From positions 48,294 to 112,293 of the forward strand of contig JAZNQD010000009.1 of NCBI GenBank assembly GCA_045589955.1: a stretch of DNA of 64,000 nucleotides, read 5' to 3'. Made by a program: the position numbers and the translations under genes. Shown here piece by piece: positions 9,501 through 24,449 of the stretch; within the stretch, counting starts at the first letter, position 1; every line of letters begins with the position of its first letter. A model generated the notes under the pieces. It ran no database searches and was not told the DNA's origin. It was given only the letters and a program-made list of their open reading frames with translations. The stretch comes from Bacilli bacterium. Lineage in GTDB: Bacteria; Bacillota_I; Bacilli_A; ML615J-28; CAG-313.

Positions 9501-9845
9501 ATGATTGATACTATAACACAAACATTCGATTACGTTTATATAATTGCAGATGAGCAAGGATATGTAAAAGTAGGTATATCTAAGCATCCAGAAAAGCGAT
9601 TAAAACAGCTTCAAACTGGACATCCTACTAAATTATCTTTGATATTTACTGAAGAATTTGAATGCACTCGTGAACATTTACTTAAAATAGAAAAAGAAAT
9701 CCACAAAGATTTACGTAATTTTACTAAAAAAGTTCACGGTGAATGGTTTTTATTACAAGAAAACCAATTAGAAAAGATAAAAAATACGATAATAATAAAT
9801 CGTATTCAATATGATGCTAATCTACTTGCTTTTAAATATAGATAA
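9501..9845 (+). CDS. T5orf172 / GIY-YIG-superfamily-like domain protein
   Basis: YVYIIADEQGYVKVGISKHPEKRLKQLQTGHPTKL matches T5orf172 (Mug113-like) domain pattern. Confidence 0.45.
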   Translation: MIDTITQTFDYVYIIADEQGYVKVGISKHPEKRLKQLQTGHPTKLSLIFTEEFECTREHLLKIEKEIHKDLRNFTKKVHGEWFLLQENQLEKIKNTIIINRIQYDANLLAFKYR

Positions 9846-9848
9846 AAT

Positions 9849-9923
9849 TGGCAGAGGCAGAGAGACTCGAACTCCCGACATTTGGTTTTGGGGACCAACG
9901 TTCTACCACTGAACTATACCTCT
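9849..9923 (-). tRNA. tRNA-Trp (CCA)
   Basis: Cloverleaf folded by hand: acceptor AGAGGTA/TGCCTCT, D GTTC/GAAC, anticodon loop CCCCAAA, T-loop TTCGAGT, encoded CCA. Confidence 0.7.
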
Positions 9924-10005
9924 GTGGCATACCCGGCAGGAAGATGTCCTACTCTTACGATGATGGAAACCGTATGCTTCACTTGATTCACGGGTATATA
10001 ATAAT

Positions 10006-10082
10006 TGGGGTGACTGATGGGACTTGAACCCACAACATTCGGGACCACAACCCGACGCTCTACCAATTGAGCTACAGCCAAC
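10006..10082 (-). tRNA. tRNA-His (GTG)
   Basis: Anticodon loop TTGTGGT, extra G-1 paired with discriminator C, encoded CCA. Confidence 0.7.
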
Positions 10083-10088
10083 ATAATA

Positions 10089-10162
10089 TGGAGCACTGTA
10101 GAGGAATTGCACCTCTCTTGTCGGTTTTGCAGACCGATGCATAACTTCTCTGCCAACAGTGC
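10089..10162 (-). tRNA. tRNA-Cys (GCA), atypical T-loop
   Basis: Acceptor GCACTGT/ACAGTGC, anticodon loop CTGCAAA, T-loop TGCAATT is non-canonical, encoded CCA. Confidence 0.55.
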
Positions 10163-10164
10163 AA

Positions 10165-10240
10165 TGGTGGTCAAGGACGGGATCGAACCGCCGACACGAA
10201 GATTTTCAGTCTCCTGCTCTACCTACTGAGCTACTTGACC
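10165..10240 (-). tRNA. tRNA-Phe (GAA)
   Basis: Acceptor GGTCAAG/CTTGACC, D GCTC/GAGC, anticodon loop CTGAAAA, T-loop TTCGATC, CCA. Confidence 0.75.
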
Positions 10241-10274
10241 AAAAAAATAAAGCCTCTGAAAAAATCTCAGAGGC
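10241..10274 (-). terminator. hairpin plus U-run on minus strand between accessory island and tRNA array (terminator or processing site)
   Basis: GCCTCTGA-loop-TCAGAGGC followed by TTTATTTTTTT on minus sense. Confidence 0.4.
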
Positions 10275-10455
10275 TCAAACCAAATAATACCGATAAAAAA
10301 GGTATAATTAAACGGCATCGCCTCCAGCGAAGTAAAAACAATGCCAAAAATGTTTAATCGTACTTTTCATCATATTATTTAGAACCTTATTTCAATAACA
10401 TTTATAAAGATTAGTTATTATAATAGCATATAAATTTTAAAAGTAAAGCAAAAAA

Positions 10456-11142
10456 TTATACTTCTGTATTTAAATTTTGTACTTTTTCTAATTCTTTAGC
10501 CGAATTAACTATCTTTTGTTGTGGATTATTACCTTCTATACCTTCATCATCTACCAAAAAGATTTTGTTTGTATTAAAATCTTTTACAAGTACAGTTTCT
10601 TGTTTGAATTCTTTACAAATTTCAATAGCAAATAACAATAGCATTTCACTAGGTACACCACCCAATTCAATAGATGTTGATTTATCATTATAAATTCTAT
10701 CACCAGATTGATATTTACCTCTAAAGTTATTCCCTACTGTTAAAGCTCCCAAGTACATATTTGGTTGTTCACCGAATTCTTTATTCCAAGTCTGTACCAA
10801 ATTGTTTACTTTTTTATCTTTAAAGACGTGATTCATTGTAGAATGATAAAGTTTCTTTAAAAATCCATACAATTTGTTTTTTTCAATATTATCAATCACT
10901 GTATTTACAGATAATGCAAATACGATCATACCACCACGATATTTTTCGAAACCATATTGCTCATCTGCGATTTTTTCATACAAAAAGGATTCTGTAAGCT
11001 TTTCTTGTCTAACAAAAGCCTTTTCATTTTCAGAGATTGCTTTTAGCATACCGGCATTGTAGTAGCAAACACCATTTGGGCGTCTGTCTTTTCCATCTGG
11101 TCTAAAATATTTAATTTCTTCTATTCGCATTTTGTACTCCAA
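10456..11142 (-). CDS. hypothetical protein (island gene 1)
   Basis: 228 aa ORF, no recognisable motif. Confidence 0.55.
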   Translation of the reverse strand: MEYKMRIEEIKYFRPDGKDRRPNGVCYYNAGMLKAISENEKAFVRQEKLTESFLYEKIADEQYGFEKYRGGMIVFALSVNTVIDNIEKNKLYGFLKKLYHSTMNHVFKDKKVNNLVQTWNKEFGEQPNMYLGALTVGNNFRGKYQSGDRIYNDKSTSIELGGVPSEMLLLFAIEICKEFKQETVLVKDFNTNKIFLVDDEGIEGNNPQQKIVNSAKELEKVQNLNTEV

Positions 11143-11696
11143 TCGTATTTACCTCTTTTCATTAACTCTCTTAAAAAATATCCATACATATGACGTGCAA
11201 AATTAGGTTTTTTGGTACCTGATAACTCATATTCTGTGTTTTCTGAGATTAATGAAAACTTATTGCCATGTATCTTGCTAAATCCATTCTTAATATCGTG
11301 TATAGAAAATTTAGATAATACTGGACTTGTAGGTTTGCCATATTTATTATACCATCTTGGTTCGTAATCAGCTGTTTTTAATAAGATACTCTCTTGTTTA
11401 TATTTACCACATAACCAAAGCATATCTTCAGCAAAAGTTTTTTTATTTCCGTTATTTATTACAAAAAAGGAAGCTTCTGTTACATCAACCTCATTTTCTT
11501 TTCCTTGGTTTTCTGTAAATCCACCTAAAATTGTAATATAACTATATCCTAAAGACCTAATATCAGTAACTAGTTCTTCTGTATACTTTTCGTTTTCTTT
11601 ATTAGAATTTTCATTACGACAAGCAGAAATAAAGCATATCTCATTGTCGTTGATATGCTGCAATACTCTACTTAATCTAGCTTCTAGCATTTCCAT
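11121..11696 (-). CDS. hypothetical protein (island gene 2)
   Basis: 191 aa ORF; promoter upstream. Confidence 0.55.
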   Translation of the reverse strand: MEMLEARLSRVLQHINDNEICFISACRNENSNKENEKYTEELVTDIRSLGYSYITILGGFTENQGKENEVDVTEASFFVINNGNKKTFAEDMLWLCGKYKQESILLKTADYEPRWYNKYGKPTSPVLSKFSIHDIKNGFSKIHGNKFSLISENTEYELSGTKKPNFARHMYGYFLRELMKRGKYDWSTKCE

Positions 11697-11726
11697 ATTT
11701 ATTAACCTATTTTTTAATTTTTATAT

Positions 11727-11762
11727 ATTATACACTATAAAAACAAAAAAGTAAAACATTTT
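11727..11762 (-). promoter_or_regulatory. sigma70-like promoter (TGTTTTACTTT-17-TATAAT)
   Basis: Minus-sense TTTACT, 17-nt spacer, TATAAT, about 30 nt upstream of ATG 11696. Confidence 0.55.
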
Positions 11763-11766
11763 TTAA

Positions 11767-12546
11767 CTATTTCCAAAAGTCGGTACTAAAATAGTTATAC
11801 AATCTAGCTAAAAAGCGTTTTTTTGACTTAGCATCTAATAAATTGTAATATTGCATAAATTCATCGTGCTTTTGCCATTCATTCTTTAAAAAGTCTAATC
11901 TTTCAATAGGACTTAAATCTTTTAATGCTCTTCCGTACTTACTGTATAATTCACCGGCAATTTTTAATATCCATGCTAAATAATGTGCATTTTTTTCATG
12001 CGGAGAATTCCAATACCAAGTGTCCTTATCTTTTGTAGTACGTGACGCGGCAGATTTTTTCAAGAAGTTTTTATATTTGTCATCCATAAAGTGTTGAAAT
12101 TCATGGACAAATGTACTCTGGACAGCTTGTTTTGATAATAATTCTAATATAGATTTGCCAGGGATTAATGTTACATCTGCTTCTCCTGTGATTGGATCAG
12201 TACCTTTAATAGCATCCCAATCTTCTAAATCAAACATATTACACAAATAAATGCAGATAGCTGGTCCAGTAGGTACATAAATTCCAGCAGTATGTTTTTC
12301 TTTATCGTCTTCATCTAGCATTAAAGCTACTACTAATGGTCCTGCGTCGGTATTTAATTCTAATGATAACTGAGGAGAGGTTTCGGTATACATTGCTCTA
12401 GTATCAACAATTTTATTTTCAAAGCCTTGTATAACGTTTTCAAATGCATTTAGAGCAAATAACAAATCTTCTCTATCTGAATAGGCATCTTCTTGGTATA
12501 CTTTTTTTATTTCTTGCTCAACAATTGTACGAAATTTAGACATCAC
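11767..12546 (-). CDS. hypothetical protein with HExxH motif (possible metallopeptidase-like)
   Basis: 259 aa; FVHEFQHFMDD contains HExxH; no further family assignment possible by eye. Confidence 0.45.
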   Translation of the reverse strand: MMSKFRTIVEQEIKKVYQEDAYSDREDLLFALNAFENVIQGFENKIVDTRAMYTETSPQLSLELNTDAGPLVVALMLDEDDKEKHTAGIYVPTGPAICIYLCNMFDLEDWDAIKGTDPITGEADVTLIPGKSILELLSKQAVQSTFVHEFQHFMDDKYKNFLKKSAASRTTKDKDTWYWNSPHEKNAHYLAWILKIAGELYSKYGRALKDLSPIERLDFLKNEWQKHDEFMQYYNLLDAKSKKRFLARLYNYFSTDFWK

Positions 12547-13175
12547 TATGCTCCATATGGATCTGAATCATTACCATAAATATCTTTACCAGCAGCTTTT
12601 TGTTTAAAATATTCTTCTCTGTCATACTGCATAGATTCAGGAGCAGTTTTATATTCTTCGTAGGATAGTTCTGGGTTTTCATACCATTTATTAAATTCAT
12701 CTAGATTAAACCATTCTATAAAGTCTAAACCTGCTTCTTGAGCAACTTGTCTTTTTAATGGATCTAATTCTGTCCAAGTATGTAAAATCTTTTTATAAAA
12801 TTCGCCCGGTTTATTTTCTAACCATTTTACATCATCTTGACAGTACGGATTATTAGCATCATACTTACTTCTACCGTGACGAATATGCTTATTATAATTA
12901 AAACCTTTATCTTCTGAAGGAATATAAAAGTCTAATTGAAAATGGCGATGAGTTTCTGGATTTACAAATCTATCATCTGTATATGACATTATAACATCTG
13001 GCCATTTTTCTTTTAATTTATCGAATATATATAATTCATCTTTACTTGTATTATAACCAGTTTCTTTGTCAAATATCTTCTTATCACCTTCACGAAGAAT
13101 ATTCTCTACAATTTCTCTAAAATTTTTCATATAAAAAAGGTCCCAAATATATATCACATATATACTTAGAACCAA
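12546..13175 (-). CDS. hypothetical protein (island gene 4); alternative start at 13130
   Basis: 209 aa ORF; internal ATG at 13128-13130 (MKNFREIVEN) may be the true start. Confidence 0.5.
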   Translation of the reverse strand: MVLSIYVIYIWDLFYMKNFREIVENILREGDKKIFDKETGYNTSKDELYIFDKLKEKWPDVIMSYTDDRFVNPETHRHFQLDFYIPSEDKGFNYNKHIRHGRSKYDANNPYCQDDVKWLENKPGEFYKKILHTWTELDPLKRQVAQEAGLDFIEWFNLDEFNKWYENPELSYEEYKTAPESMQYDREEYFKQKAAGKDIYGNDSDPYGA

Positions 13176-13436
13176 AATTCGTTATCTAAAGCCAAGCCAA
13201 CATACATTACTATATGGCTACCCTTTAGAACATGCAGTCTTTGTTTTGGTCTCGATAGCTCCCGTGCGCAGGGGATACAATTGGTTAGTTCACAAACCGC
13301 CTGAGACTCTGTGGCAATCTATTAAAAATTAATAGAATACTTTTTTAATCTACGAGTAGGATAAATAAGCCGGCACTCATCCTCTCTATCTGCATTCCAT
13401 CTAGCGTCTATACTTCCGCCATAACGAATTACTTAT

Positions 13437-13470
13437 TTTATACAATATACTTTTAACAATGTAAAGCAAA
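13437..13470 (-). promoter_or_regulatory. sigma70-like promoter (TTTTGCTTTACA-17-TATAAA) driving the 13176-13436 leader
   Basis: Minus-sense TTTACA, 17-nt spacer, TATAAA. Confidence 0.45.
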
Positions 13471-14079: not shown

Positions 14080-15114
14080 TTAATATGTACTTAAATTATC
14101 AAAATATCCTTTAACATAAACAACCGGCGTTCCTTTATCACCACTACCAGATGTCAAATCCATTAAAGAACCTAATAAATCAGTTAATCTTCTTGGAGTA
14201 GTACCTTGTGAAACCATATTACCTACTAAATTTTTATCTTTTTCTTTGATACTTTGCTTAATAGTATTAGTTAAATCATCACCGCTTAAATCTTTATAAT
14301 CATTATCAGCTAAATATTTAAGTTTTAATTCGTTAGGTGTTCCTTTTAATCCATCTGTATAAGCAGGACTTACAACAGGATCAGCCAATTCCCAAATACC
14401 ACCAACAGGATCTTTAAAACAACCATCTCCATATACCATTACTTCAATTGTTTTTCCTGTTTTTTCATAAATTGTTTTTTGGATACAATCAATTAATTTT
14501 TTTGCAGAAGAATACGACGGAAATAATTTTAGCTTTTCTTCAGTCGCTTTATTACTTCCATATAGACCATATTCACATTTATCTGAACAAATATCTTTTA
14601 AGGTTATATCAAACGTATTTTTATGAATCTGACAATCTATAATCCCATTAACATTACATACCGATTCATTTTGGTATACAATATAACACTCTTTACCTTC
14701 TGCTTCAACAATTGATTTATAATATTCATCATAATTCAATCCGGTAAAAGGATGATTTTGTAATACATTACCAACTTCATCGACATTAGGCATTCTTATA
14801 TAAACAGTTCCAGTAACTGCTCGTGCAATACCTTTTAAAATCATTGCAAAACGATTACGCGAATAAATTGGATTAAATACTAAAATATCTTTTGGATTAT
14901 TGAATACTTTTTTAACAGATTCGGCAACTTCATCAACCGTAACATAATTACCTTCTGTTCTTGCAACAATAGATTCTGTAATACCTAAAACATCTTTATC
15001 ATCTATTTCTAACCCACTATTTAAAAGTGTATCTGAAACAATTTGAGCTAAATCATCACCTTCTTTGAAAATTGGACAAACTAATCCATATACAGATGTA
15101 CCTATTGTGCGCAT
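14080..15114 (-). CDS. CofE-like (F420-0:gamma-glutamyl ligase family) amide ligase homolog
   Basis: N-terminal [13 protein letters not shown]...[20 protein letters not shown] and C-terminal [12 protein letters not shown] resemble conserved CofE/FbiB blocks (GDDLAELI, SKAEGR, EGTPVV.VRG). Confidence 0.5.
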
Positions 15115-15138: not shown

Positions 15139-15216
15139 TGGTGCGTCGAGCTGGATTCGAACCAACGACCAATCCGTTATGAGCGGACAGCTCTAACCGG
15201 GCTGAGCTACCGACGC
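15139..15216 (-). tRNA. tRNA-Met (CAT)
   Basis: Acceptor GCGTCGG/TCGACGC, anticodon loop CTCATAA, T-loop TTCGAAT, CCA; elongator or Ile-lysidine type not distinguishable. Confidence 0.7.
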
Positions 15217-15260
15217 ATATTTATTTAAATAACTAATAATCATGTTATTAAAAAATAAAA

Positions 15261-15334
15261 TGGCTGGAGGAACTGGAATCGAACCAGTATTCTGAGTGCC
15301 AAAAACTCATGTCCTTCCCTTAGACGATCCTCCA
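15261..15334 (-). tRNA. tRNA-Gln (TTG)
   Basis: Acceptor TGGAGGA/TCCTCCA, anticodon loop TTTTGGC, T-loop TTCGATT, CCA. Confidence 0.6.
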
Positions 15335-15338
15335 ATAA

Positions 15339-15423
15339 TGGTGGGTGAGGATGGATTTGAACCACCGATGTCTAAGACGGCGGATTTACAGTCCGCTGCA
15401 ATAACCAACTATGCGACTCACCC
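15339..15423 (-). tRNA. tRNA-Tyr (GTA), type II
   Basis: Acceptor GGGTGAG/CTCACCC, anticodon loop CTGTAAA, long variable arm, T-loop TTCAAAT, CCA. Confidence 0.65.
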
Positions 15424-15428
15424 TTAAA

Positions 15429-15505
15429 TGGTCGGAATGGCGAGACTTGAACTCACGACATCTAGTACCCAAAACTAGCGCTCTACCAGGCTGAGCTACA
15501 TTCCG
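15429..15505 (-). tRNA. tRNA-Pro (TGG)
   Basis: Acceptor CGGAATG/CATTCCG, D GCTC/GAGC, anticodon loop TTTGGGT, T-loop TTCAAGT, CCA. Confidence 0.7.
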
Positions 15506-16147: not shown

Positions 16148-17701
16148 TTAATATACTATTTGCATATAACGCTCTTGGTTAATAACTTTCAAAGTTGCTT
16201 CTAAAGCATCATAATCTTCGCCTAATGCAATTTTCATAACAGAAGGTGAACAACCAGATAACAAAATATTATTCTTATCGTTAACCGTAATAGGAGTTTG
16301 ATTACTACGACTATCTACGTTCCACCATATTAACTTAGGTAAAGTATATCCAGCTTTTTCATATTTAGCCTTTATACCTTCATAATTAGTAAAACCAAAT
16401 GAGTATTCATCAAATTCCATATCTGAAATAATAATAAGTTGTTTTGGCATATCAGCATCTGGTACTTTTTCGGCAACAGCTCTTTTCAAAATTAAATCGA
16501 AAACACTTTGTAAATTAGTATTACTACAATCACCGGTAAAAACAGAACGAATTTTATCCAATAATGTATTACCTTTAACTATTTTCCACTGTGCGTTACA
16601 TGAAAAAGGAATTACATAGTTACGCCAAACCAAAGACTTATTTCTTTCTGCTATATAAATTGCTAAAGACAAAGATACAGCCATCGGTAAACCATTCATT
16701 GAACCAGATGTATCGCAAACAACCAAACCGTTTATTTCTGGTACATAATCCGGTAAAGCTTTCCATTGCGCCTCGACAGTAGGATTTATATTGATATGAG
16801 AGCCATAACCAATAAAATCATAAGCATCACTATAAACCCGAATTAAATCATACGGATATAATGTTTTAGCATTTATTTTAGCTTTACCTTCTTTTACCGC
16901 TTCTATATACGCATTATACTTATCAGAATCGTTTTTAAAGAAAGCTTTTCTGTATTTAAATGCAGCATAAGAAGGAAGATTTTCATAGTTAATTTTATCG
17001 TATTCTTTATTAACTAATTTTGTTTCAACTATATCCAAATCTTTACGTAATAAAACCAAAGCTCTTCTATAAGCTCCAATTGCACCAAACTTCCCAGATT
17101 TCAACAGTATATTTAACCACTTACGTTTTTCTGCATTTTTTACGCTTGTTCGTGGTAACCATTTAGCTAATAAAGAAATATCATATAATTCACCTTTAAA
17201 ATGATGTTGTAAATCTTTTTCTAATTGCATACCTATATAATCTATTACTTCATCTCGACAAGCAGTAAGTAATAGTGGCATATAATCATCATATCTACCA
17301 TATTCTGCAATTAAACCTAAATTTTTGCATATCCAATCTTTTTCGACATTACCTAAATATTCTAAGCAAATACGAAATACTTTACGTTCACCTTGTCCGC
17401 CTCTTACATCACGAATATAAAAAAGAGTACGTAAAGCCAAAGTTTTATCATAGTTAAATGCATTTACAAAAAGATTTAATATACGAGATTTATCAGTTTC
17501 TTTACGTAAAGCTGCACCATGAAAAAACCAATCAACAAGAGCGTTTTGTGTAGAAATATTAGTCAACGCCCCATTTTCAGTATAGGTTTTATTTGACATA
17601 GCATTAATAAACGCATTAGTAGAAGATTCACTTACTAATGGTATAGCTTTAAACTCAGAAATTTTTGCAGTATATCCTAATAAATCTGTATATGTTTTCA
17701 T
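16148..17701 (-). CDS. vWA-domain protein with MIDAS motif and N-terminal helical DUF2828/TROVE-like module
   Basis: LVVCDTSGSMNG (DxSxS MIDAS) about residue 330; N-terminal YIRDVRGGQGERKVF block reminiscent of DUF2828 proteins; promoter upstream. Confidence 0.5.
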   Translation of the reverse strand: MKTYTDLLGYTAKISEFKAIPLVSESSTNAFINAMSNKTYTENGALTNISTQNALVDWFFHGAALRKETDKSRILNLFVNAFNYDKTLALRTLFYIRDVRGGQGERKVFRICLEYLGNVEKDWICKNLGLIAEYGRYDDYMPLLLTACRDEVIDYIGMQLEKDLQHHFKGELYDISLLAKWLPRTSVKNAEKRKWLNILLKSGKFGAIGAYRRALVLLRKDLDIVETKLVNKEYDKINYENLPSYAAFKYRKAFFKNDSDKYNAYIEAVKEGKAKINAKTLYPYDLIRVYSDAYDFIGYGSHININPTVEAQWKALPDYVPEINGLVVCDTSGSMNGLPMAVSLSLAIYIAERNKSLVWRNYVIPFSCNAQWKIVKGNTLLDKIRSVFTGDCSNTNLQSVFDLILKRAVAEKVPDADMPKQLIIISDMEFDEYSFGFTNYEGIKAKYEKAGYTLPKLIWWNVDSRSNQTPITVNDKNNILLSGCSPSVMKIALGEDYDALEATLKVINQERYMQIVY

Positions 17702-23119: not shown

Positions 23120-23274
23120 TTTATAATTCCTGAATCATAGCACGTTCCTTTATGAATATGAGTTACGGTTTTTGGTTCAACCTCTGCTACACATTTCGTT
23201 ATACTTATTACACATACACAAATAATTATTGCACGTAAAACAGAATTTAAACAATATACCAAAACTTTTTTCAT
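23116..23274 (-). CDS. small Cys-rich hydrophobic peptide (52 aa)
   Basis: Hand-translated MKKVLVYCLNSVLRAIIICVCVISITKCVAEVEPKTVTHIHKGTCYDSGIIK; ATGA overlaps at both ends (coupled to guaC-like and mazG-like genes). Confidence 0.35.
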   Translation of the reverse strand: MKKVLVYCLNSVLRAIIICVCVISITKCVAEVEPKTVTHIHKGTCYDSGIIK

Positions 23275-24449
23275 AAAATACCCTTTCCATCATTATTTAA
23301 AATGCGGCGAACTTTATAAAATGTTGTTACTTTTGGAAAATCTTTTAGTTTTGTACAATTTATATAAGTCATGGTACTTCTTAATGATCCTAAATAGTCA
23401 TCAATAATATTTTGTACTGGACCAACGTATTCTTTTAATGTAACAATACCTTCTGATGTTCTGTAGTTAGCCATACCATTCCAATGTTTATCTTGGGCAT
23501 ATTTAGATGACATTCCATAGGCAAGTTTGAATTTTTTAGCTTCATATTTTGGTTTATCGGGGACATAAATTTCATCAATTAATGTAAATCCATCAACAAC
23601 TCTTTCTTCTGTTTCTATATAATAATCATATTCATTAGTGCGGTATACTTTTTCAATAATATCACCTTCAGCTTCATCAGTTCCAGCAACTAAAGAACCA
23701 ACCATTACAAAATCGGCACCTGCTCCATACGCCTTTGCAATATCACCATAGCAAGTAATTCCACCATCAGCACAGATATATCCACCCACCGCATGAGCAG
23801 CTTCTGCACAATCTAGTACGGTAGATAATTGTGGACGTCCAACTCCTGTTTGTTTTCTTGTCGTACAATTAGCACCCGGTCCAATCCCACACTTAACTAA
23901 GTCTGCTCCGGCTAATATTAAATCTTGGACCATATCTCCGGTTACAACATTACCAACCATTATAACGATATCTGGATACTCTTTTCTAAATAAACTTACT
24001 GCTTCTAAAAGCTTTGGAATATATCCATTAGCAATATCAATACATAAATTTTTACAAAGACCTGTATCTAAAATACGTTTTGTCTTATTTACGTCTTCAG
24101 TATTTATGCCAGTTGATAAAAAGATATAATCGTTTCCACAAATATGTCCATCAAAAGTTTTGGCAGAAAGATTATTTTCAGTAAAAAATTCATAAAGGCT
24201 GTCAAAAGAATAATGCTTTTGTAAACAACAGAACATTTTATTATATTGAAAAACTTTAGCCATTTCAAATGTACCTGTAGTTGCCATATTAGCTACAGTT
24301 AATCCATTTCCTTCTATTGTTCTATTTGACCATTTAAACGTATACTTTCTATATACATTAGGCTCTTTTCTTGAATTTAAAGTAGAGCGTTTAGGTTTAA
24401 TCAATACATCGCAATAATCTAGCTGTTCTTCGTTTATAACCTGTGTCAT
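23271..24449 (-). CDS. guaC: GMP reductase (GuaC-type, IMPDH/GMPR family)
   Basis: DVLIKPKRSTLNSR...TFKWS...ANMATTGTFEMA ... GADLVKCGIGPGANCTTRKQTGVGRPQLSTVLDCAEAAHAVGGYICADGGI...GADFVMVGS aligns block by block with bacterial GuaC. Confidence 0.7.
   Translation of the reverse strand: MTQVINEEQLDYCDVLIKPKRSTLNSRKEPNVYRKYTFKWSNRTIEGNGLTVANMATTGTFEMAKVFQYNKMFCCLQKHYSFDSLYEFFTENNLSAKTFDGHICGNDYIFLSTGINTEDVNKTKRILDTGLCKNLCIDIANGYIPKLLEAVSLFRKEYPDIVIMVGNVVTGDMVQDLILAGADLVKCGIGPGANCTTRKQTGVGRPQLSTVLDCAEAAHAVGGYICADGGITCYGDIAKAYGAGADFVMVGSLVAGTDEAEGDIIEKVYRTNEYDYYIETEERVVDGFTLIDEIYVPDKPKYEAKKFKLAYGMSSKYAQDKHWNGMANYRTSEGIVTLKEYVGPVQNIIDDYLGSLRSTMTYINCTKLKDFPKVTTFYKVRRILNNDGKGIL

Follow-up and report, generated by a model that had tools for sequence, protein, structure and literature searches.

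A new structured RNA, candidate head-packaged proteins and predicted SAM-lyase-family genes at one tRNA-region locus of a putative uncultivated myovirus

Does a run of four small genes beside phage tRNA genes form one operon of anti-defense cargo, or does it bring together units that could serve different stages of infection? The locus that raises this question spans 10250-13468 on the minus strand of a 64,000-nucleotide (nt) stretch of DNA (contig JAZNQD010000009.1 of assembly GCA_045589955.1, positions 48,294 to 112,293; hereafter the window). It comprises a stretch free of open reading frames (ORFs), followed in the direction of transcription by the genes p4, p3, p2 and p1. The original prediction, made from the letters of the window, described an accessory island of unassignable proteins between tRNA arrays, with a leader and promoter of its own, in a place typical of anti-defense or host-takeover cargo. 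That observation is largely right and its anti-defense interpretation is partly right, but the model of an operon with a leader is wrong. The locus is best explained as a mosaic of three expression units, namely a structured RNA, p4-p3 and p2-p1. Judging from sequence, synteny and motif statistics, we think it somewhat probable that p4 and p3 are loaded into the phage head in a T4-like manner and that enzymes of the S-adenosylmethionine (SAM) lyase family are expressed early.

The window is A+T-rich (~28% GC) and holds 20 tRNA genes, all on the minus strand (ARAGORN, Rfam), as well as myovirus tail genes encoding sheath, assembly chaperone and head-fiber-like domains. Comparison with 50,697 deposited phage genomes gave no DNA-level match, and matches were found only at the protein level, to Lak megaphages (p4, 30% identity) and to Campylobacter phages and cyanophages (p2). 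Its source is best explained as a large myovirus, so far uncultivated, whose head is of the T4 type. The four co-oriented minus-strand ORFs are present at the positions claimed for them. The start of p2 was kept, whereas p4 begins at ATG 13130 rather than TTG 13175, p3 at ATG 12543 and p1 at ATG 11130 (Table 1); these three corrections follow the N-termini of homologs. For comparison, 18 relative loci (given below as L numbers) were mapped, representing ~12 distinct loci, some being duplicates of one contig.

The N-termini of p4 (MKNFREIVEN) and p3 (MSKFRTIVEQ) carry an amphipathic decapeptide, M-S/K-K-F-R-x-I-V-E-N, that is found on at least ten unrelated bodies in the relatives. Tagged proteins there include p3 and p4 homologs, a p1 homolog (L004, P0100), a 150-aa body (L006, L025) and further unrelated proteins of 88, 98, 128-133, 149, 167, 174, 523 and 565 aa, all encoded around p4. 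The decapeptide is confined to the N-termini of clustered genes and occurs nowhere else in the window or the loci. Its synonymous codons vary (Ser TCT/AGT, Arg CGT/AGA), which argues that selection keeps the peptide and not the RNA. Presence of the tag varies within the p1 and 150-aa families, and in p4 the linker between tag and body is variable in length; in the structure model of p4 the tag is a helix detached from the body. In phage T4, a capsid-targeting sequence (CTS) of 10 residues, MKTYQEFIAE, uses positions 4 and 7 for targeting, whereas positions 8 and 10 steer its processing by gp21, which cleaves behind L/I-x-E (PMC9026906, PMC8442874). The internal proteins of T4 are diverse anti-defense proteins with the CTS as their only common feature (PMC3012670). 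At the sequence level, I7-V8-E9 of p3 and p4 equals the L/I-x-E site of the prohead protease, and [LI]xE is present among the first 16 residues in 51 out of 52 p4 homologs (at positions 7-9 in 31 of them) versus 51 of 170 control ORFs.

The genomic setting of p4 in relatives points in the same direction. In 8 of the ~12 distinct loci, p4 belongs to the head module, where it stands between the gene for a T4-type portal and that for a large protein that matches Peptidase_S77, the T4 gp21 family. The module runs Portal_T4, two ~115-aa proteins, one to three giant proteins, p4, zero to four variable genes, a conserved ~265-aa protein and a protein of 700-1330 aa. The portal assignment scores 53.6 bits (tested on L024 only), and the N-terminus of the 700-1330-aa protein matches Peptidase_S77 in four of six orthologs (L032, 31.1 bits with a cut-off of 27; L031, 24; L028, 22; L001, 21), with no match in the other two. 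Homologs of p4 form 77 clusters with 46-98% identity, and p4 is therefore not the accessory gene it had been taken for: its place in the head module is fixed in most relatives examined, and conservation among relatives, which the original prediction had itself named as a sign of a core function, points to such a function for p4 alone. An accessory, probably anti-defense role continues to fit p2, p1 and p3, and the expected variability of the region is borne out, in that p3 is rare and the genes adjacent to p4 differ among relatives.

Proximity to tRNA genes, by contrast, is not a general property of the block but a lineage-specific one. In L024 the entire p4-p3-p2-p1 block lies inside the head module, whereas in the window and L004 lineages the tagged genes belong to the tRNA region, flanked by the RNA on one side and by a tRNA/T5orf172/DnaJ segment on the other. 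Even in the window, only one of the two claimed tRNA boundaries holds. Array 1 begins 216 nt past the p1 stop, but array 2 does not directly adjoin the block: a CofE-like gene intervenes, as do two or more small ORFs (69 and 80 aa).

Two motifs divide the locus into units of apparently different timing. The −35 motif TGYTTTACW occurs 16 times in the window versus 5.9 ± 2.4 times in shuffled sequence, a count reached in none of 100 shuffles. All three promoters originally claimed (13465-13437, 11755-11727 and 10447-10420) exist, are sigma-70-like and carry this motif; the one ahead of p2 is kept in the p3-p2 spacer of the diverged relative L024. A second motif, RGTTCTA, is distinguished by position. 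Nine of its 19 matches sit 26-90 nt before a same-strand ORF of at least 100 aa (P = 3e-9), a zone that makes up 3.3% of positions. These nine sites precede the sheath and tube genes, p4 and six other genes (tail, baseplate or unassigned) of the 31-63 kb structural region, and in relatives the motif stands ahead of the portal, the giant head proteins, the S77 protein and the tagged cassettes. From this placement, we infer that RGTTCTA may be the late-gene motif of the clade. The candidates AAGTATATA and CTAAGTATATAT, tried as late promoter, were not enriched, and RGTTCTA was adopted in their place.

Directly ahead of p4, the late-type motif is built into a hairpin. The 5' arm holds GGTTCTA (13173-13167), and the 3' arm contains the only purine-rich stretch (GGGA), 11 nt ahead of the p4 ATG. 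In L004 and L025, too, the same hairpin with its motif stands ahead of the first gene that bears the tag. By its sequence, the hairpin could be either a terminator of early transcripts or a trap for the ribosome-binding site. In place of the single operon first proposed, the stretch has two predicted early promoters, one ahead of the RNA and another ahead of p2-p1, and a late-type motif ahead of p4-p3. Elsewhere, a longer conserved element that holds the late-type motif, GTTCTATAAAYYATGATKAA, precedes each tRNA array in the window (15701-15695 and 10386-10380, minus strand) and in L004 (3022 and 8037), suggesting that the arrays may be transcribed late.

Does the decapeptide have to be a capsid-targeting signal? 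Shuffling of cassettes is evident, with the order p4-p3 in the window and p3-p4 in L004; p1 exists both with and without the tag; and the 150-aa body is tagged in frame in L006 and L025 but out of frame, at a poly-A run, in L004, where sequencing error, decay or slippage could be responsible. Such features would suit a helix through which cytoplasmic complexes dock or oligomerize, a degron with a regulatory role, or the conserved end of a recombination cassette by which genes enter and leave the slot. We regard these alternatives as rather unlikely, because synonymous codon differences imply selection on the peptide and not DNA identity alone, the tagged genes lie between the portal and the prohead protease behind the motif of head and tail genes, and the motif that this family of proteases cleaves stands, with hardly any variation in position, at the end of the peptide.

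The body of p4 raises a different question. Behind its tag, p4 carries a restriction-endonuclease-like (Vsr / VRR-NUC / DUF559-like) domain whose fold matches Vsr, VRR-NUC and the catalytic domain of the homing endonuclease I-Bth0305I, with the PD-(D/E)xK core fold present. D67 and H85 are conserved, and the Glu position is Asn or Gln (N78-Y-N80-K81) in most of the 52 homologs; the active site is probably degenerate. If p4 were nonetheless an active nuclease, either homing-type or degrading host DNA, the block could be a mobile element between head module and tRNA region, as its fold matches, its occurrence in two genome contexts and a nearby T5orf172/GIY-YIG-like gene might suggest. This seems to us quite improbable. 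Unlike sporadic homing genes, p4 is single-copy, well conserved and fixed in place in most relatives; the acidic residue of (D/E)xK is Asn or Gln in most copies, whereas a distant Lak-phage homolog (L038, the sole Lak-A2 copy read) keeps the canonical IEYNG..H; and the tag and late-gene context fit a component of the virion. We infer instead that p4 and p3 may be packaged in the head and injected. Elsewhere, p4-like domains are fused into larger proteins or occur as extra copies, with two to four per Lak megaphage genome (Table 1). Matches of p4 to GCN4 in a single-sequence PDB search were set aside as an artifact of tag and coiled-coil composition, and such searches of p1-p4 returned nothing meaningful.

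In p3, the tag is followed by a body with conserved HE[FY]xHFxDDK and NxPxExNAxYxAW, confirming the HEFQH (HExxH) motif noted at the outset; HE[FY]xH and the downstream Glu are kept in three lineages. Based on these residues, p3 is a putative zinc metallopeptidase. A search of 5.8 billion proteins, which finds only relatives sharing 5-residue words, recovered just two clusters of p3 homologs, to which a copy in the L004 lineage can be added.

The third unit, p2-p1, had been described as lacking recognizable motifs, which is wrong for p2: it matches Pfam PF23780 (S-AdoMet_lyase) with 46.4 bits (cut-off 28). Its family numbers 893 representative clusters (E-value up to 0.001), and the family profile aligns with the T3 SAM lyase (7ock/8bb1; E = 1.3e-5) across the G-x-Y, E-x-S and Q-D/E motifs. 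The ligand-binding residues of Svi3-3 are Gly56, Tyr58, Glu69 and Gln104 (PMC7877911); the ligand-site residues of p2 are G58, F60, E74, S76 and Q101-E102-S103. By these matches, p2 is assigned to the PII-like SAM-lyase family that includes T3 SAMase and Svi3-3. No similarity between p1 and p2 is seen by BLASTP, and their link appears only in profile-profile comparison, where hhalign aligns the two families over 50 columns of the p1 C-terminal half (90.6%, E = 1.3e-6). Here p1 has D149, S151 and Q177-E178, with no aromatic residue after GG. Its homologs form 31 clusters. Three homologs (P0100, P0097 and P0098) have tagged N-terminal extensions, and another, P0112, fuses a p1-like to a p2-like domain. 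We consider p1 a probable divergent relative of the SAM-lyase fold, and the overlap of the two genes suggests translational coupling. The T3 SAM lyase is an anti-restriction and anti-BREX enzyme (PMC7877911). More broadly, members of this family are known to counter type I restriction and BREX by depleting SAM (PMC7877911; bioRxiv 10.1101/2023.02.27.530186) and type III CRISPR by degrading SAM-AMP (PMC12255297).

The ORF-free stretch at 13176-13436 is, as had been noted, richer in GC (35-40%) than its surroundings (~28%). What had been called a 260-nt leader is instead a conserved structured RNA with strong covariation, which the hairpin at 13173-13139 separates from p4. The fold is multi-branched and closed by its own 5' and 3' ends (minimum-free-energy z-score −3.86). 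RNAalifold on a 10-sequence alignment gives 46 consensus pairs with compensatory changes in 34 of them. Standard pairing holds in 97.4% of cells, compared with 30-42% when the 3' partners are slid, and the covariation score is 0.635, compared with at most 0.13 in slid controls and with no shuffle among 500 reaching the observed value. Because some of its conserved pairs are G-U, the fold is specific to transcripts of the minus strand. This is a new, well-supported structured RNA family and the most novel element of the locus. Homologs were seen in the relatives reached via p4, and an exact 20-mer search found the RNA in five IMG/VR contigs, nine rumen or human-gut metagenome contigs and one contig of a metagenome-assembled genome (MAG) binned as Succinivibrionaceae.

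Known classes do not account for this RNA. Rfam 15 gave no match to it at the gathering score, none to the window at E ≤10 and none to five relatives at E ≤0.5, and ARAGORN found no transfer-messenger RNA (tmRNA) in the window. With zero model matches, T-box, riboswitch, RNase P, signal recognition particle (SRP) RNA and tmRNA were set aside, and comparison by eye with RNase P P4 and SRP domain IV motifs yielded nothing convincing. A Y-RNA/Ro assignment was also dropped, the weak YrlA match in L004 (27.9 bits, cut-off 69) falling on tRNAs and not on the RNA.

Could the RNA still be a cis-acting leader, riboswitch or attenuator that governs one four-gene anti-defense operon from the promoter at 13465-13437 by way of the terminator hairpin? 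The arrangement of RNA, terminator-like hairpin and p4 ATG is that of a transcription-attenuating riboswitch, and the four genes are co-oriented and closely spaced. We nevertheless find this improbable. Downstream of the RNA lie p4 in the window lineage, a 135-aa ORF in L004, other, unrelated ORFs in L009, L012 and L013 and a tRNA in L010, and in at least one genome (L009 and L035 being the same contig) the RNA and p4 occupy separate, distant regions. Moreover, the L004 hairpin accompanies the first tagged gene and not the RNA, p2 has its own conserved promoter, and riboswitch and T-box models do not match. A TTTACA −35 element stands at a constant distance ahead of the RNA in the window lineage and L004, within what appears from its sequence to be an early, sigma-70-like promoter. 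Varying downstream genes, a separate p4 region and this conserved −35 element lead us to read the RNA as stand-alone rather than as a leader, and it is probably a stable RNA of the tRNA region that is transcribed early. In L010 the order is tRNA-RNA-tRNA, and in L004 some 40 nt separate the RNA from the end of the tRNA ahead of it.

What the RNA does can be addressed only speculatively. Its single-stranded junctions are invariant, its core of several helices covaries, it has a predicted promoter of its own and it is nested among tRNA genes. These features would allow it to be a ribozyme, or the RNA part of a ribonucleoprotein, that acts on or with the phage tRNA set, perhaps with the conserved DUF2828/DUF7788 protein as partner, an idea that we consider tentative and, on the whole, unlikely. 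In four of six lineages, the strand that encodes the RNA also carries a gene for a protein with DUF2828 and DUF7788, 1.3-2.8 kb further upstream (Table 1). The interval contains genes for a Cys-rich protein of ~82 aa, a lipoprotein and a small membrane protein. A search of the DUF2828 protein for TROVE/Ro60 similarity detected none. The Succinivibrionaceae MAG contig (L023, JBJFGR010000076.1; source of P0100) is 12 kb long and holds the RNA, DUF2828 and a tagged p1 homolog. It could be phage DNA that was binned in error, or it could point to the host, and sigma-70-like promoters would fit a proteobacterial host.

We propose the following model for the locus as a whole. Early in infection, a host-type promoter would produce the ~255-nt structured RNA, and the hairpin at 13173-13139 would end or mask early transcripts coming from that promoter. 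Late transcripts would begin inside the hairpin and so expose the p4 start, such that p4 and p3 are made together with head genes. The decapeptide could then dock both proteins into the prohead core, where an S77-type prohead protease would remove it, and p4 and p3 would be ejected with the DNA into the next cell, p4 as a conserved DNA-associated protein of nuclease fold and p3 as a rare HExxH enzyme. Meanwhile, the second early promoter would drive two translationally coupled proteins of the SAM-lyase family, p2 and p1, acting early in the infected cell. By splitting SAM or a SAM-derived signal such as SAM-AMP, they could blunt SAM-dependent restriction, BREX or type III CRISPR.

Several observations weigh against parts of this model. 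First, the window is without head genes (portal, protease, capsid protein), so that the link to the protease comes from relatives, and three of the four S77 matches there fall below the Pfam cut-off. Second, the L/I-x-E motif is short and the proteome, A+T-rich in its coding, abounds in Glu, Ile and Leu; 30% of control N-termini carry the motif. T4 internal proteins, for their part, are small and basic. Third, the total count of RGTTCTA is at chance (19 versus 18.6), only its positions being non-random, and in L032 and L036 a p2-like gene follows the late motif, so early expression of the SAM lyase is not universal. Finally, the proteins themselves depart from their models. The usual acidic residue of the nuclease motif is missing from p4, p3 is without family or fold assignment, and p1 stays below the Pfam cut-off with 17.8 bits and has an insertion of ~75 aa. 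In p2, Phe replaces the Tyr58 of characterized lyases, a position at which, among 50 family members, Tyr is found 34 times, Phe 9 times and Trp 7 times.

Table 1 Positions of features at the locus, in its surroundings and in relatives
Feature	Position	Strand	Remarks
RNA promoter, early (predicted)	13437..13465	−	TTTACA, 17 nt, TATAAA; −35 within TGCTTTACA at 13468-13460
Structured non-coding RNA, ~255 nt	13172..13434	−	covariation, folding energy
RNA closing helix P1	13434-13422/13184-13172	−	
RNA invariant hairpin P2	13421-13402	−	UGGCG-GAAGUAUAGA-CGCUA
RNA long-range helix P3	13395-13390/13237-13232	−	
RNA helix P4	13386-13354	−	
RNA helix P5	13307-13249	−	
RNA helix P6	13229-13185	−	
RNA invariant single-stranded CCAAAACAAAGAC	13249-13237	−	
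16-bp hairpin + T-run	13139..13173	−	terminator scan; T-run abuts p4 ATG
p4	12546..13130	−	ATG start, 194 aa
p3	11767..12543	−	ATG start, 258 aa; begins 2 nt past p4 stop
p2-p1 early promoter (predicted)	11727..11758	−	TGTTTTACT ... TG-TATAAT; scan score 10/12
p2	11121..11696	−	191 aa; start as first annotated
p1	10456..11130	−	ATG start, 224 aa; 10-nt overlap with p2 stop
Unit tail	10250..10450	−	promoter-like site 10450-10420, late-type motif 10386-10380, two terminator-like hairpins
Terminator-like hairpins	10346-10313 and 10276-10250	−	just ahead of tRNA-Phe
tRNA array 1 (Phe, Cys, His, Trp)	9849..10240	−	ARAGORN + Rfam; downstream boundary
tRNA array 2	15139-15505		1.7 kb upstream of ORF-free stretch
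T5orf172/MUG113 gene	9501-9845	+	GIY-YIG-like
F420_ligase (CofE-like) gene	14080-15114	−	344 aa; Pfam 157 bits
DUF2828/DUF7788 gene, window	16148-17701	−	
DUF2828/DUF7788 gene, relatives	L004 142-1626; L012 6138-7751; L010 9908-11377		
IMPDH/GMP-reductase-family gene	23271-24449	−	187 bits
150-aa gene, relatives	L004 7407-7530; L006 3915-4460; L025 9407-9979		
Giant proteins, relatives	L024 4203-6467; L026 1727-7923; L031 2674-8001		750-1775 aa; also in others
p4-like domains elsewhere	L029 7068-8561, 10128-11582; L035 11519-12397; L037 3839-4945, 8073-9257; L038 4001-4462		

Other genes near the locus and in its relatives deserve mention. The giant proteins encoded between portal and p4 in relatives, each preceded by the late-type motif and one of them with a nucleotidyltransferase (NTP_transf_2) domain, are candidates for ejected enzymes. 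The T5orf172/MUG113 gene of the window lies between tRNA-Trp and a gene with a DnaJ domain, a position kept in L004 and L006. Between array 2 and the RNA lies the CofE-like gene, which is present in L018 and L019 and absent from L004. Its score is far below the NCBIfam equivalog cut-offs, and the product is therefore probably not a true F420 ligase. An IMPDH/GMP-reductase-family gene is found in the phage early region.

If the tag acts like the T4 CTS, a distant clade of uncultivated gut and rumen phages would also load proteins into its heads, by means of swappable cassettes. More than ten candidate injected effectors would follow, including a HExxH enzyme and, in some relatives, the SAM-lyase-like p1, and the tag itself could be a portable means of packaging foreign proteins. 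More generally, the two-timing layout is a testable model in which one locus serves two stages of infection, with injected proteins made late and the SAM lyase made early.

Close parallels are found in T4. The tag resembles the CTS in its aromatic position 4, its hydrophobic position 7 and its L/I-x-E ending, but the sequences differ (MSKFRTIVEN versus MKTYQEFIAE), with a one-residue offset in the cleavage site. As with IPI, IPII, IPIII and Alt of T4, the tagged genes are clustered and vary between related phages, and those of the window lie beside tRNA genes, as the T4 ip genes do. In most relatives, by contrast, the tagged genes belong to the head module. Unlike the T4 internal proteins, p4 combines strong conservation with a nuclease fold, and some of the relatives' tagged proteins are large (523-565 aa). 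Expression of p4 could also follow a T4 precedent. In the T4 genes e, soc and I-TevI, a hairpin sequesters the start on early read-through transcripts and the late promoter lies inside it; here, too, a late-type motif appears to lie within a hairpin over the p4 start region, although that motif is RGTTCTA and the T4 motif is TATAAATA. T4 encodes the stable RNAs C and D in its tRNA cluster. The RNA described here likewise lies among phage tRNA genes but, with ~255 nt, is longer, has a multi-branched fold and does not resemble them in sequence.

Comparison with known enzymes shows a similar mixture of shared cores and added parts. Compared with Vsr, DUF559, VRR-NUC and RAP-domain proteins, p4 has Asn or Gln in place of the metal-binding Glu of IE.DG..H and adds the tag, a helical C-terminal extension, an acidic Tyr-rich tail and a head-gene context. 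With T3 SAMase and Svi3-3, p2 shares the G-x-aromatic, E-x-S and Q-D/E-S motifs but is longer (191 versus ~150 aa), having an N-terminal ISAxR motif and a C-terminal extension. In contrast to known SAM and SAM-AMP lyases, p2 is paired and overlaps with, and elsewhere is fused to, a divergent paralog, p1. Like that of the SAM-AMP lyases, among them the C. botulinum enzyme and the candidate AcrIIIB4, the role of p2 would be anti-defense.

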